From the IMG/VR virus record IMGVR_UViG_2541047426_000030: 64,000 nucleotides of DNA. The stretch is one strand, 5' to 3'. The DNA is from a virus (taxonomy: Duplodnaviria > Heunggongvirae > Uroviricota > Caudoviricetes). Below, piece by piece: positions 42,001 to 48,000 of the stretch (position 1 is its first letter; each line of letters begins with the position of its first letter). Position numbers: made by a program.

Positions 42001-45000
42001 TCCCTTAAATCCGGCGGCAATGGGTGACCAGGTCACATCCTCATGGTTATTTGCCGCCCATGCCCCCCAGCACTCAAGAACCTGCCGGATATCACGCATC
42101 AGTATCTTTACCCCATCCGCGATGAACCATAAGAACACCGTTGACAATAGCGTGTCTTTTTCCTTCTTTATCGCCAGTGTATTTTCTGACCGTGTTGCGA
42201 CTACAGTTCAGTATTCTGGCTACCTCGGTCTGATTTTCATATGCCTCAACGAGCATGTCAGGAATGGTTTTTACTGTGAACGTCATGCGGCCTCACTTCT
42301 GCTGTTTCGCAGGTCTTTAAGTTTCTGCTGATACTTCGCCTTGATCGCCCTGCATTCTTCGACAGTCCAGCGATGGCGGTTATGGTTCGATTCGATTTCG
42401 TCTACTGCTTCCTGCCCGATGCGGTTAATCAGTTCGACGCGATACGGAACGAGATTTCCGCTTTTGTACTGGTTACACACCACGCATTGCTTGTGGATAT
42501 TGCGTTCATCAAATCTGAGTTGGGGAGCCGCAGCTGTTGTACGGTAATGACCTGCATCCCACTGAGCAGAATCGAATGTCCCGCATGAAACGCACGGCAA
42601 ATTACGGTCTCGTTCTCTGATATAAGCATTCACGGCCTGCTGTGCCTGCTTAATCCAGTAACTGCGGGGCTGTAAGTCCCTTCTTCGCGCTTTAAGTTTG
42701 TCTGCCTGTTCTTTTGCAAAGGCTATGGCCTTTTCTTTTCTGACCAGTTCAAGTGCGCACTGACCGCAACAAACTTTCTGATACGAGCGAAACGGCACAA
42801 ACGGGGTTCCGCACACTTTGCATTTTTTAGGTTTACGTTGCTGCATCATCACCTCAGAAAAACGACAGCAGGCGGTTATTCAGTTCAGGGCTGTTTGAGC
42901 GCCCAAACACATGCTTTAACGCGGCATTAATCATTGAGTTGTAGCAACGTTCAAACTCATCCTGATCCATATTCGCGTAACTCAGGCTTTTTGCCCGATA
43001 TCTCACCTCGCCTCTTATGGTTGTGACCACATCATAAAACCCGGCAAGAATTGTCAGATTTTTACGAAACTCATCAAACTGCGTCGCTTCATCAGAGAAT
43101 TCGTATCCGGCATGTTCAGCGCACCAGTACTGAAAGCAGAAATTAAGAAAAGCGAACATCTTCCGGTGAAAAGATGGGTTACGGGTAAGTTTTGCTTCCA
43201 GTGTATACAGCTCACCGTTTTTAAATTTTGCCAGTCGGGGTAAATCGCGCTCATACGCCGGTACAAATACGCCATTAGCCGCCTTGATCATCTCTATTTC
43301 CATCAGGCAGCCTCCGCTTTGAATTTGCGCGTCAACACATGTTCACGGGCTTCACACCCCTGAATGAGCATGTCGTTAAAATCCGGCAAGTCAGGCCAGC
43401 GAATGCTGACTTTCTCAACGTCATTGCAACTCATGAGATTCTTATGCCCACATTTAAAGGCAGCCGCCAGACCTGCGCCGTGCGCATCATTGTCAGCAAA
43501 GATAATCAGGTGATTAACGCCAGGTGGCGCAATGAACTTCTCCATAAAACCGGAGTTCATTGTTGACCACACATTGCAGCGGAAGATTTGACGGCATGAA
43601 AGCGCCGTTTCGATACCCTCGGCTATCCCCAGAGTGGACGACACCGGATACAGGCGTATTGCCACCGATTTAGCATGCTGCAAACCAGGCAACTCCTGTA
43701 GCGCAGTCATTTTTTTAGCCGCCTCTACATTCGCCTTGCGATCACCATCCAGCAACGTACGATGCAGATAGCAAAGAGAACCTTTGTCATCTGTTGCAAT
43801 GGCGTAAATTGCCTGATATTCGCGCCCGCTGGCGATCTGACGGTCACAGAAACGCACGGATTCGATCGGTAACTGGAGTATTCCCCTCCCCTGCAGGTAC
43901 GCCTCACCTGTTGTGCCCCGCAGACACGGGAGTCCGGCAAACTTATCCATGACCAGCTTCCGCTTTCTGCTTATCTCTGTTACAGGCTGGCTGACTTTCT
44001 CCCTCTTCCAGGTATTTCCGATCAGCCGATCGATTTCATCACACAACGTCACCCAGGGCTTACCCGTGGCAAGTTGCAACAGATTCATCCCGTCCCCGTG
44101 ACCACAGACACAAATCCATGAACCGGAACCATCCTTATCATCACAGCGAAATTTACCTCTGGCACCACATATCGGGCAGGGGCCGCTATAATGTTTCAAG
44201 CCAGTAACAGGAGGCATGCCGTAATATTCAAAAATTCGCCCCCAATGCCCGGCCGCTGCCTTCTTAGTCTGCATGCTGGCCTCCTGTCATGGCTTTCTTG
44301 CGCCCTTTGGCATAGGCAATGGTCTTTGACTTGATGAAGTTGTACACTTCAACTGAGGTTTGCAGCGGCGCATTACTGAAGCCTTTAGGCCACACACCGA
44401 ACTTCTCCTTGTAGGTATGAGCGCACCATCCGTCACTCAGGGGTTTACCCGTCGCGTTGCGGTAATTCTGATACCCCTTGATCTCACTCCACCAACGCTG
44501 CTTTTCCTCGCGACTGTATTCGCGTTTCCCTTTGTTTACGCGAGAGAGTTTTCGATCGCGGTCTGTTGCCACATCATCGCCACCAAGAGGACGAAACCCA
44601 CATTTGGGACACATGTGTACACCAGCAGGCTTCATGAAGTGGCATTTGGGGCATTCTCTGGGAAGTTTCTCAGCCTTAACCTCGCCACCGCCAGCAGACG
44701 CTTTCATTCCGTCATTTTTACCCGGCAGTTCGTCATACTCGATATCCTCGGGGAAGCCCAGCCGATGAACCGTACCAGAATGGTCAAAAATCAACGCACG
44801 TTTTTTACCTGGGGCTGTACGTAACGCTCTACCTATGCACTGCAACCAACGGATTTCTGATTTTGTCGGACGGGCGTAGATCAGGCAGCGAACATCGCTG
44901 TCAAATCCCGCAACCAGTACACCAACGTTGACAATTATTTTGGTCGCGCCCTCTTCAAAACGGCGAATGATGTCCTGTCGTTCATCATGGAGGGTATCTG

Positions 45001-48000
45001 CCGTCATCACCTCTGCACCAATACCGGCCTGTAAAAACTCACGGGTAACAAAATTCGCATGCGCAACATTCACGCAGAAGCAGATCGTCGGCAAATCCTC
45101 GCCATTCTCAAGCCAGTTGCGAACGATATCGCCAACCAGATCCGAACTCCCCATGATGGATGCGAGCTGCTCCTCGTTGTAATCCCGTCCAAATACGGTG
45201 TTACTGGTTTTTACGCCAGCCAGATCAGGCATTGAGGGGGCAAAAAACTCGTAATCGCTCAGATCACCACGCTGAATAAGTTCACGAATCGTTGTAGGCT
45301 TGAGCAGGCATTCGTAGTACTTCCCCATCCAGGCTGCGAACGGGGTGCCGGAAAGTCCAAGAACCCTGATGTCTCTGTCCCGGATAACCTCAAGTAACGC
45401 ACGACGCTTCATGTGTGCTTCATCGATGATCAGCAGATCGATGTTGTCAGGAAACTCACGACGGATCAGCGTGTCGGCACTGGCAATCTGAATCAGTCGT
45501 GACGGGTCATAGTTAGGGTGATCACGCCATACAAAACTGATTTCTTCCCACGGCAAACCGTATTCGGTGAAACGTTCCGCTGTCTGGTTCAGCAGGATGG
45601 TGTACGGACAGACAAACATCACCCGCATACCACGTTCAACCATTCCGGCAGTGACGAATGCTGCAAGACCAGTTTTGCCAGAGCCAGTGGGTGCATACAT
45701 CAGGTACGTGCGATGCTGTTTCCACTGGTGCCGCAGCTGGTTTAAACCGCGCTCCTGAGCAAAGTTTGGGGTGATTTTCAGCATGACGCCCCCTTGCCAT
45801 TCGCCGGGATGATATCGATCCCAGCATCGCTATAACTGGTCAGTTTCTTTGGCATTCGAAGCAACACAAAGCCTTCAGTGCCACGACGTGCCAATTCACG
45901 CAATTTCATGACTGAGCGGGGTCGCGGAGAGCTACGATCGATCTCGATAGCCACACTCCCACCAGTTTTTGCTGTTGCGAGAATATCAACACGGAAATTT
46001 CTGCCATCGATTCTTACTGTGACATTGCTTGCCACATGCATCCCCTGTGACTCAAGGATCGTTACGACATCAGCCAGAAAGCTGTAACGCTCCTCTGTTC
46101 TCAGTGGTACAGTGCTCAGTGTACGGATCAGTGCCGATTTGGTTGCTGCTGACATAGTTTATCACTCAATAGTTAGCTCGATAATTATTTCACCAGGAAC
46201 TATCGCGCGCTTATACAGTGATCTACCTAACCTATGTACCTGCCTTCTGGCCTAGGCCAAGGGATACAGGCCTTACCAACGACTCCACCCCCTTACCCCC
46301 TCCTCGCTTCCTTTCAGGAAATTAGTTGCATGTGAAATTATTTCTAGCGCAACTAACCGCCATCATGGTGTCGGGGGAAACTTCCGTACCGCTACTGGCG
46401 AAAGCATCCAGCCACGGCTGGCTCTCGCGTACTTCTGGACATACACCCGTAACCGGGTGTTGGCGCTCCGTCTTGCCCTGTTGCCCTTCCTGAACGATAC
46501 AGGCTCCTTGTCCCACTCTTCCTGGTACACTCTCGCGTACTCTGCTGCAATTTTTACCCGGGTGGTCGGGTCTAGCTGTAACAATTGCTCCTGTATCCAG
46601 TCCCGATCAGCATCACAGTACTGCTCGGGCATAACCGTTTTGATTTGCCTGTTCACTCACACCTCCGATGGGCTGTGTGTCCAGGATTAATCATCGCCTC
46701 TTACGAACGCAGGGAACGGACGAACCTCTTCCGCCTCAACTGTGCCGTCATCAAAGGTTTTGACGTATATTTCTCGTCCGACGAGAAGCGCTTTACTGAT
46801 TGCACTCTGCGCCACGCCAAAGTCCTTAGCGGCTTTCTTTTGGCCGAACCTGTATACGTAATCAGCCAGGGTCTCTTTTTTCATCGCCATAACTGACTCC
46901 TTCAAAATGCCCATATCATTACGCACAGTTATTAAAATGTCAACACCGCAGATATTTCATTACATATAACCAAAGGTGATATGGTATGAACATGAAAAAG
47001 AAACCGTTAACCCCTGAGCAACTGGAAGACGCCAAGCGTCTGAAAAGTATTTTTAACGCTAAAAAGAAAGAGTTAGGCCTGTCGCAGGAATCATTAGCCT
47101 ATGAATTAGGTGTTACCCAAAGCGCTGTTAATCAGCTAATGGCTGGCATCAACGCCATAAATGCCAGCCACGCAGCACAGCTTGCTAAGATACTGAATGT
47201 AAAGGTCGGAGATTTCAGTCCCAGCCTGGCAAAATCTATTGCAGAAATGGCGCTCGCAATTGAAGAGCCATTAACTCGTGTCCCCGCTTACGAATATCCG
47301 TTACTCTCCTGCGTACAAGCTGGCGCATTCTCAATGGATGATATTTCGTACACCGCAAAAGATGCGATTAAATGGATCTCCACCACCACAAAAGCCAGTG
47401 ACAGGTCGTTCTGGCTGGAGGTCAAGGGGCATTCAATGACCGCACCGCAGGGTGGTAAACCCAGCTTCCCTGAAGGTATGCTGATACTCGTTGACCCTGA
47501 ACGGGAAATCGAGGATGGCGATTTTTGCGTGGCCCGAATGAACGGCGATGAATTTACCTTCAAACGATTCATTCGTGAGAGCGGTAAAGCGTACCTGGAG
47601 CCGCTCAACCCACGATTCGACATGATTGAGTGTAACGAAAACTGCCAGTTTGTCGGAAAGGTCATCAAATCGCAGTGGAATGATGAGACTTTTGATTGAG
47701 CTCACAGAGTGATTTGACATCCTTCACGCCTGAAGAATGTGGAGGATGTCAAAAGCACGTTGGCATCATCATGCCACGTAAAGAGGATTAGTTATGCTTC
47801 AAAAGCTAGACGTCGCAGACAGCGTGCGTCGCGAGCTGTCTCCCCGTACCGCGCGTAAACACAAAGCAGAGTTCGGCCAGTTCATGACGCCTTCTGGCGT
47901 GGCCCGTTTTATGGCCTCCTTGTTTCCACCGAGCACAATGAAAACTTGCCGTCTACTGGACGCAGGCGCTGGTTTAGGCGCACTGTCTTGCGCCTTCCTC

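Follow-up and report, generated by a model that had tools for sequence, protein, structure and literature searches.

The replication unit closest to the locus described here is Eru1, whose type phage is TL-2011c and whose genes have been named eru1A (a DEAH helicase of superfamily 2, SF2, with 506 amino acids, aa), eru1B (a 323-aa Toprim protein) and eru1C (a 149-aa DUF1367 protein). Eru1 phages have neither the lambda replication genes O and P nor any homologue of N, CII or CIII (Llarena et al., 2021, PMC8044961). The typing of Eru units was later extended, with the other open reading frames (ORFs) of the region left as undiscussed 'white arrows' (Fagerlund et al., 2022, PMC8951638). In two outbreak strains, O104:H4 (2011) and O103:H25 (2006), stx2a resides on an Eru1 phage. 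Reports on Eru1 phages describe lysogeny of unusual instability and a high output of Shiga toxin (Stx), and their lysogens are about eight logs less stable than those of 933W (Llarena et al., 2021, PMC8044961); toxin output tracks phage replication. Here we analyse the Eru1 region of IMG/VR virus record IMGVR_UViG_2541047426_000030, a stretch of 64,000 nucleotides from a virus of the Caudoviricetes (hereafter the window). Our emphasis is on a 207-bp non-coding gap without a convincing ORF (46156-46362), which lies between the gene of a 97-aa protein (p97), directly after cro, and the gene of a 125-aa protein (p125), directly before the helicase.

The genes between cI/cro and stx2 are the same as in TL-2011c, with a 506-aa helicase following cI and cro, a 323-aa Toprim protein, a 149-aa DUF1367 protein, and O and P absent. 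A megablast search of phage records with the segment 43303-46926 returned 98 full-length matches. The segment is 100% identical to PA2, PA8, VT2phi_272, ArgO145 and Stx2a_F765; with TL-2011c and with P13374, a phage of O104:H4, it shares 97.4% identity, and no sequence difference sets the window and the type unit apart. Both toxin genes, stx2A (39922-40881) and stx2B (39641-39910), lie on the minus strand, preceded by three tRNAs, Q, NinH and NinG, and their presence identifies the window as an Stx2a prophage; the region is thus the Eru1 replication unit of a non-lambdoid Stx2a prophage. A preliminary description of this DNA, made from the sequence alone, had placed a primase and an SF2 helicase where lambda has O and P. 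This is correct, as no O- or P-like ORF lies between cro and Q (Pfam, with every ORF accounted for); given the identity to published phages it is not new, since the helicase-plus-primase arrangement has already been reported as Eru1. The published definition counts eru1C in and does not discuss p97, p125 or an origin (PMC8044961; PMC8951638), whereas in our comparison p97, and not eru1C, is the conserved companion of the helicase and primase. A literature search, which covered mostly sources other than subscription journals, yielded no further papers on Eru1 beyond these two and no described origin in Fels-1 or P13374-type modules.

To the published picture we add a candidate origin at base level (46183-46356, with its core at 46220-46300), p97 as a fourth conserved component that the published definition missed, the removal of eru1C from the module, a fold assignment for p125, which is probably dispensable, and a firm exclusion of CII for p97. 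The comparison of relatives makes it reasonably probable that the Eru1 unit consists of p97, a candidate origin in the gap, Eru1A and Eru1B, with p125 as an accessory cassette and without a CII. In the scheme that we propose, the gap would be the origin, and its core, formed by two short motifs termed here the G-box and the T-box, would be enclosed by three copies of a 20-bp motif that is specific to the phage type. Such a core would replace the iterons and the RepL-type winged-helix initiator of sister modules. p97 would have the origin or the helicase as its target, binding nucleic acid through its basic C-terminal helix and a protein partner through its acidic N-terminal half; the SF2 helicase would open or remodel the origin, and the Toprim primase would lay the first primers. 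p125 would be an accessory or selfish nuclease cassette, co-translated with the helicase and unneeded for initiation. We infer these roles from comparative genomics.

When relatives are read side by side, the gap is conserved well above the genes that flank it. A tract at 46272-46311 (minus strand; 23 G against 2 C) is G-rich on the sense, or non-template, strand of the transcript that starts at the pR-like promoter, and no other 40-mer of the 64-kb window has a stronger G/C skew; the corresponding tract ranks first for skew among the 40-mers of 35 of 41 related loci, and the G-rich strand is always the sense strand. The tract contains the G-box GGGGGTAAGGGGG (46288-46300, minus strand), present as a single exact copy in the window. 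Its form, GGGGG-W3-GGGGG, recurs among the 42 gaps that were compared, as the exact 13-mer in 23 and with up to three mismatches in 36. The T-box ATAGGTTAGGTAGATC (46220-46235, minus strand), with one GATC inside, is found 65 nt downstream, counted from the G-box start, and a T-box with at most two mismatches occurs in 21 of the 42 gaps, 57-66 nt downstream of the G-box. A scan of all IMG/VR contigs for the G-box plus T-box DNA pattern alone recovered 97 stretches; wherever the flank was sufficient, the element lay between a p97 homologue (43-100% identity) and the helicase, in the same orientation, in all cases but one (89 of 90). The only contig without a detectable helicase after the element (L083, IMGVR_UViG_2850808358_000013) ends 637 nt past it. 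Within IMG/VR the G-box/T-box element belongs to this module only.

Repeats that differ between phage types stand on both sides of the core. In the window, a palindrome at 46322-46356, directly past the p97 stop codon, is formed by two overlapping inverted copies of the 20-bp motif TAGTTSCNNNKGAAATWATT (46323-46342 and 46336-46355), and a third copy, TAGTTCCTGGTGAAATAATT (46183-46202, minus strand), stands on the far side of the core. These three copies occur in the gap only and nowhere else in the 64 kb, with 0.04 expected by chance. At the equivalent position some relatives carry pairs of the 18-bp palindrome GTAYYA-N6-TRRTAC, about 150 bp apart and again confined to the gap, while others carry tandem TAGAYGGCT-like units in the gap.

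In the loci without a G-box (L004, L005 and the Vibrio phage L044) the gap contains repeats as well: GGAACAGnTnGTTCC occurs four times in L005, and copies of ACGACAGAACCTGTCG lie beside an AT-rich stretch in L044. In all three loci a RepL/HTH_36 winged-helix ORF, which PHROG labels 'replication initiation', lies just before the helicase. Judged across loci, the G-box/T-box core and a protein initiator are alternatives. Since iterons and a RepL-type initiator occupy the same position in sister modules, we read the gap as an origin and consider an expression signal less likely; on this comparison, the gap probably holds the replication origin, at 46183-46356 with its core at 46220-46300. The preliminary description had noted a non-coding gap of about 200 bp that may carry the origin, and the skew, the conservation of the element and the iterons of sister loci together lend support to that suggestion. 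The RepL/HTH_36 iteron origins of plasmids and sister modules share with the window the position between p97 and the helicase, with repeats that flank or precede the first replication gene. The window differs from them in that it has no winged-helix initiator ORF (neither p97 nor p125 matches HTH_36, RepL or Phage_rep_O in Pfam) and in that its core is a non-repeated pair of boxes conserved across genera.

Such an origin could open in two ways: module proteins could act on the double-stranded core and its flanking repeats, or the transcript from pR could form an R-loop. R-loop or transcript-primed origins are represented by ColE1 RNA II, T4 oriF and oriG with UvsW, and mitochondrial CSB II; at the T4 R-loop origins it is the SF2 helicase UvsW that acts. 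PriA-dependent initiation is a further process that such an opening would resemble. The window and these origins have in common a G-rich non-template tract after a strong early promoter, a G5-6 N3 G5-6 arrangement and an adjacent SF2 helicase gene, while the tract of the window is short and without a four-run G-quadruplex (G4) motif. The promoter in question is a pR-like sigma-70 site (46915-46943, minus strand; TTGACA, a 17-nt spacer and AATGAT) that drives cro, p97, the gap, the helicase and the primase. It is the sole promoter-like site on either strand of 43000-47100, and no terminator-like site was found on the minus strand downstream of it in the same interval; with no other promoter and no terminator, its transcript must cross the gap.

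In its strict form, this sub-model of the gap as origin dispenses with an initiator protein: transcription would open the origin through an R-loop of the pR transcript on the C-rich template, and the displaced strand or the hybrid would serve as the entry point of helicase and primase, or the RNA itself would prime. We regard this as possible but doubtful. It agrees with the placement of a tract that is G-rich on the non-template strand in related loci throughout, downstream of a promoter and with neither promoter nor terminator between pR and the helicase, with the mutual exclusion of G-box and protein initiator across loci, and with the UvsW-, RecG- and PriA-type SF2 proteins among the distant relatives of the helicase. 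It also agrees with hairpins in the relatives. In 68 of them, one or two hairpins with the invariant 8-nt loop TTAAAGGT stand before the tract, directly after the p97 stop codon (for example at 6346-6395 in L010, at 6330-6380 in L002 and around 5300 in Fels-1, L043). Across 32 distinct versions, their stems contain 154 Watson-Crick pairs, 26 G:T pairs and only 2 A:C pairs, with many compensatory changes, and the ratio of G:T to A:C implies that they form on the sense strand, as RNA or as displaced DNA. In addition, a canonical G4 motif is present on the sense strand of 49 of 87 distinct gaps, as against 4 in 893 kb of flanks. The window's gap, however, has neither the TTAAAGGT hairpin nor a canonical G4 motif, the constant orientation of the G-tract may merely reflect conserved gene order, and the T-box and the flanking palindromes resemble double-stranded protein-binding sites. 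Nor does folding of the gap favour an R-loop origin: its RNA folds no better than shuffled sequences (z -0.54), and RNAalifold yields 0 pairs and no consensus structure.

These folding results, together with the comparison to Rfam, where the gap gave no hit above the gathering threshold and no credible one even with E relaxed to 10, do not support a structured RNA in the gap of the window; the z-score of the C-rich DNA strand was -1.93. The gap is conserved in primary sequence, not in structure. A G-quadruplex was likewise rejected as a universal feature, given the relatives that lack the canonical motif and its absence from the window.

The hairpins and p97 can also be combined into a different account, in which the gap is not an origin and serves as a cis-regulatory RNA or DNA element for helicase-primase expression, with p97 as its regulator, for instance as an N/nut-like or processing factor acting via an arginine-rich helix. 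The invariant stretch NRARxxANTRLR of p97 is arginine-rich and is encoded directly upstream of the sense-strand hairpins in many relatives, the element lies within the 5' untranslated region of the helicase or of p125, and N is absent from Eru1 phages (PMC8044961). Yet the window keeps p97 without having the TTAAAGGT hairpins, no terminator-like site is there for an antiterminator to act on, conservation resides in the primary sequence, and iterons with a RepL-type initiator at exactly this spot in sister modules point to an origin. We therefore hold a purely regulatory element to be improbable.

Several points weigh against the gap as origin and against the roles proposed for the module proteins. 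No DnaA box (TTATNCACA, with at most one mismatch) occurs in 46156-46362, and an AT-rich stretch suited to unwinding is not obvious in the window's gap. When within-type and between-type divergence were compared along p97, the helicase and the primase, no segment clearly followed the flanking-repeat type (0.02-0.28 difference per 20-aa block). The structural model of p97 is of only moderate confidence (pLDDT 78), and none of its structural neighbours has a known function. Its recognition-like basic helix is invariant in both G-box and RepL/iteron loci, so that p97 would not be a G-box-specific reader unless the target is common to both; the invariance makes p97 more likely a common factor, with nucleic-acid binding and helicase/primase contact, than a reader of the G-box. 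Classical replicative fork helicases are not of the SF2 type, and host DnaB may therefore still be needed. Finally, the authors who extended the Eru typing stated that nothing is known about the Eru replication proteins (PMC8951638).

With these points in mind, we speculate that Eru1-type phages have an initiator-less origin, in which a G-rich box that is R-looped by the pR transcript, or read directly by the set of p97, helicase and primase, has replaced iterons and a RepL-type initiator. This more far-reaching version is, in our estimate, unlikely. Were it true, p97 would represent a new family, widespread with at least 966 clusters, of factors that act at the origin or recruit the helicase, and firing of the origin would be tied to read-through from pR, which could add to the unstable lysogeny and the high Stx output.

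The case for the module, with the gap as its candidate origin, depends in good part on p97 (46363-46656, minus strand; GTG start preceded by GGAGG). A set of 38 species-level genome loci was fetched by p97 alone, at 42-58% identity of p97, and in 37 of them the helicase lies downstream. The helicase is 62-69% identical in these loci, and the primase (50-59%) is next wherever the DNA is long enough. In the same loci cI is merely 28-45% identical or undetectable, a lambda-type cro is present in some only (that of L004 is of YdaS/HTH_3-type), and the genes 3' of the primase differ, with an antiterminator where gene tables were read. A homologue of eru1C is present in none of the 41 loci fetched through p97 (L002-L042). 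Salmonella Fels-1 and a Vibrio phage show the same gene order. The exception, L012, has p97 but no helicase; it is a remnant left by rearrangement, broken directly after the first hairpin. As p97 tracks the helicase and the primase rather than the immunity genes, and as eru1C is never present, p97 belongs in the module and eru1C outside it. By its gene neighbourhoods, p97 is the constant first gene, and the functional module, as redefined by these comparisons, is p97, the non-coding element, Eru1A and Eru1B, with the DUF1367 gene eru1C excluded.

The module is present in 153 of 5,426 complete E. coli genomes, every time on the chromosome. It is also found in Fels-1 of Salmonella and among the prophages of numerous Enterobacterales and Vibrio species. 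Two plasmid records from Klebsiella and Morganella (NZ_CP076549.1, L046, and NZ_CP149982.1, L047; 37-39 kb) are whole temperate phage genomes with the layout cI-cro-p97-gap-helicase-primase-Q, and PLSDB lists them as non-mobilizable. Further p97-bearing plasmid records of 37-42 kb from Klebsiella and Enterobacter are probably phage genomes as well. All of these may be either induced phage DNA or phage-plasmids; being whole phage genomes, L046 and L047 provide little evidence on autonomous replication. In the Listonella phage phiHSIC (L045), an unannotated p97 homologue of 34% identity is encoded at 5001-5222, downstream of a 953-aa helicase gene and ORF41, where it overlaps the opposite-strand annotation of ORF40. 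The ORF40 annotation is probably wrong, and the p97-helicase link probably reaches a different architecture there.

The p97 protein itself is divided into an acidic part (residues 1-52; 7 K/R and 11 D/E) and a strongly basic part (residues 53-97; 12 K/R and 0 D/E), and it carries the invariant motif EPVSFRxxNRARxxANTRLR. A profile search gave at least 966 clusters at 90% identity. In the best 120 of these clusters the protein always stands alone, at about 85-155 aa, with no domain fusions and one faint Pfam match only. The best family match of p97 is phrog_852, a PHROG family labelled 'unknown function'. Its AlphaFold (AF2) model contains three long helices (residues 15-25, 30-50 and 54-80); it has no neighbour among PDB structures (best E 0.9), and in BFVD it retrieves only unnamed members of its own family.

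GenBank record PV189405 annotates p97 as 'CII transcriptional activator', which would make it the analogue of the activator that establishes lysogeny. The gene lies directly after cro, and the protein has the length of lambda CII. The label is attached to a member of phrog_852, however, and p97 has no match in Pfam or NCBIfam, including Phage_CII, at E up to 0.1. An hhalign comparison with lambda CII gave a probability of 0.2%. The model of three long helices is without the layout of a helix-turn-helix (HTH) plus tetramerisation region. The sequence TTGC-N6-TTGC is absent between cI and the helicase and is found in the window solely at 48847 and 59248. Moreover, the p97 gene moves with the helicase and the primase rather than with the immunity genes, and a CII homologue has been reported absent from Eru1 phages (Llarena et al., 2021, PMC8044961). 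We consider a CII function of p97 extremely unlikely and rejected it on the missing profile match, the hhalign result and the missing TTGC-N6-TTGC site; as far as profile, fold and site searches reach, no CII-like establishment factor is encoded here, as the preliminary description had also concluded. Neither of the two results that could have contradicted that description, a CII-family HTH in p97 or an initiator fold in p125, came up in the profile and fold searches, and the two small ORFs, for which it had assigned no function, are undiscussed in PMC8951638 as well. A relationship of p97 to ORF106 of P4, the small ORF directly upstream of alpha, was rejected too (hhalign probability 0.1%).

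The second small protein, p125 (45778-46155, minus strand), is a minimal PD-(D/E)xK nuclease-fold protein. An exhaustive phmmer search collected 28 representative homologues, mostly of 104-145 aa, in which E71, D73, R78, S81 and K84 are invariant and D57 nearly so. Several members of the family match Pfam MTES_1575, Mrr_cat or NucS_C, while p125 itself stays under every Pfam threshold (E 0.037); it shows the core alpha-beta-beta-beta-alpha-beta fold. Its motif is D57...E71-x-D73...K84 rather than the canonical D...(D/E)xK, the (D/E)xK lysine being out of place. p125 thus has a PD-(D/E)xK nuclease fold and not an initiator fold, and is a predicted nuclease. It resembles the minimal PD-(D/E)xK nucleases (AF1548, the C-terminal domain of NucS, Bax1 and Hjc; MTES_1575 and Mrr_cat) and has no DNA-recognition domain. 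The p125 stop codon overlaps the helicase start by 7 nt, from which we take the two to be co-expressed.

The distribution of p125 differs from that of p97. A homologue is present in just 5 of the 38 genome loci, plus Fels-1 (37% identity), and the slot is empty of ORFs in most G-box loci. In three loci the slot contains HNH/NUMOD4 homing-endonuclease genes (L006, 1833-2438; L034, 6319-6822; L041, 6132-6407), with the conserved non-coding element on one side and the helicase on the other. Even where viral contigs match the window at 95-98% identity in p97 and helicase, the p125 allele can be as little as 36% identical. The slot between origin and helicase, which holds varied nucleases or none, would thus be a landing site for nuclease cassettes, and p125 is probably an exchangeable accessory cassette, dispensable for the module. 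One could instead regard p125 as the initiator, nicking or cutting at the flanking 20-bp repeats. Sister modules have a RepL-type initiator in its slot, its translation is coupled to that of the helicase, and it has the invariant acidic and basic residues E71, D73, R78, S81 and K84. We nevertheless consider this role very improbable: the slot is empty or occupied by an HNH homing endonuclease in most G-box loci, alleles of only 36% identity occur in nearly identical modules, and the canonical (D/E)xK lysine is not in place.

The two larger proteins of the unit agree with the preliminary description of a DEAH helicase with a C-terminal zinc ribbon and a zinc-finger/TOPRIM-like primase, and their sizes and domains with the published account of Eru1 (PMC8044961). 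Eru1A (44264-45784, minus strand; 506 aa) matches ResIII/DEAD and Helicase_C in Pfam; residues 373-396 give a weak match to a double zinc ribbon, and the protein is extended at its C-terminus by about 110 aa. Its translation contains LLIIDEAH and CPKC...CPKC. The closest solved relative is RadD (6jde, E 1e-16), and more distant ones include XPB, UvsW, RecG and PriA. Like RadD (YejH), XPB, UvsW and the SauUSI-type 7clg, Eru1A is built on an SF2 core; this contains a DEAH box, and a zinc ribbon comes after it. It differs from RadD in the unrelated C-terminal 110 aa and in belonging to a phage replication operon and not to repair. It reaches 89 bits (E 2e-25) against the RadD model of NCBIfam, which has an equivalog cut-off of 720, and was therefore rejected as a RadD orthologue and kept as an SF2 relative only.

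Eru1B (43303-44274, minus strand; 323 aa) is a stand-alone zinc ribbon plus Toprim protein, with matches to Zn_Ribbon_Prim (PF08273, E 8.9e-15), DUF7146 and Toprim_3 (E 1.2e-10). It carries an N-terminal CxxC...CxC ribbon and a Toprim domain that has an acidic motif, as do zinc-ribbon/Toprim primases of the T7 gp4 and P4 alpha type, and it has no sequence relative in the PDB. The primase domain of P4 alpha (zinc ribbon, Toprim and EGxxTA) aligns with it end to end: residues 3-309 of Eru1B correspond to residues 8-302 of alpha with 27% identity (BLASTP, E 1e-16), and IAEGIETAL is aligned to IAEGYATAL. In P4 as in the window, a small ORF precedes the replication gene in the same operon. P4 alpha, however, combines the primase with an SF3 helicase and an ori-binding domain, whereas Eru1B lacks the latter two and the helicase is a separate SF2 protein. 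The iterons of P4 ori and crr, octamers of the TGTTCACC type, are absent from the window's gap.

The early-right operon runs on the minus strand in the order cro, p97, gap, p125, helicase and primase. An ORF listing recovered every ORF named in the preliminary description at the same coordinates, all on the minus strand, and the gene order from cro to Q is 97 aa, 125 aa, helicase, primase, DUF1367/NinB-like, NinG, NinH and Q. Eru1C (42854-43303, minus strand; 149 aa) matches DUF1367 in Pfam and NinB in PHROG. The cro gene (46687-46890, minus strand; Pfam Cro, E 4.8e-34) is given with the 67-aa start of the PV189405 annotation, the mechanical ORF extending to 46926. Divergent from it, cI (46986-47699) encodes a LexA-like repressor with HTH_3 and Peptidase_S24 domains. 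Directly downstream of cI and on the same strand, a complete type II restriction-modification pair (47794-50213, plus strand) takes the position of lambda rexAB; an Eco57I-family methylase of 489 aa and a BsuBI/PstI-family endonuclease of 317 aa (E 5e-61) overlap by stop and start, and no N-like gene is evident.

Two pairs of isrK and C4 antisense RNA, the immunity RNAs of the P1/P7 type, are located about 12 kb apart at 50833-51722 and 62793-62975, and a Rha-family regulator (51075-51722; Phage_pRha, E 2e-32) comes after the first. The paired isrK and C4 suggest a second immunity or anti-repressor layer, or else a duplicated segment or the end of a second prophage. An ALIL pseudoknot at 34528-34644 (plus strand, 121 bits) corresponds to the frameshift signal of IS3-family transposases and indicates that an IS element has entered the late region of the prophage. 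Immediately past stx2B, Rfam detects the small RNAs (sRNAs) AsxR (39307-39359, plus strand) and STnc100 (39361-39566, minus strand). Beyond these sRNAs, a 645-aa ORF (37218-39155) combines DUF1737, SASA sialate-esterase and DUF6645 domains, and we take it to be of the NanS-p type.

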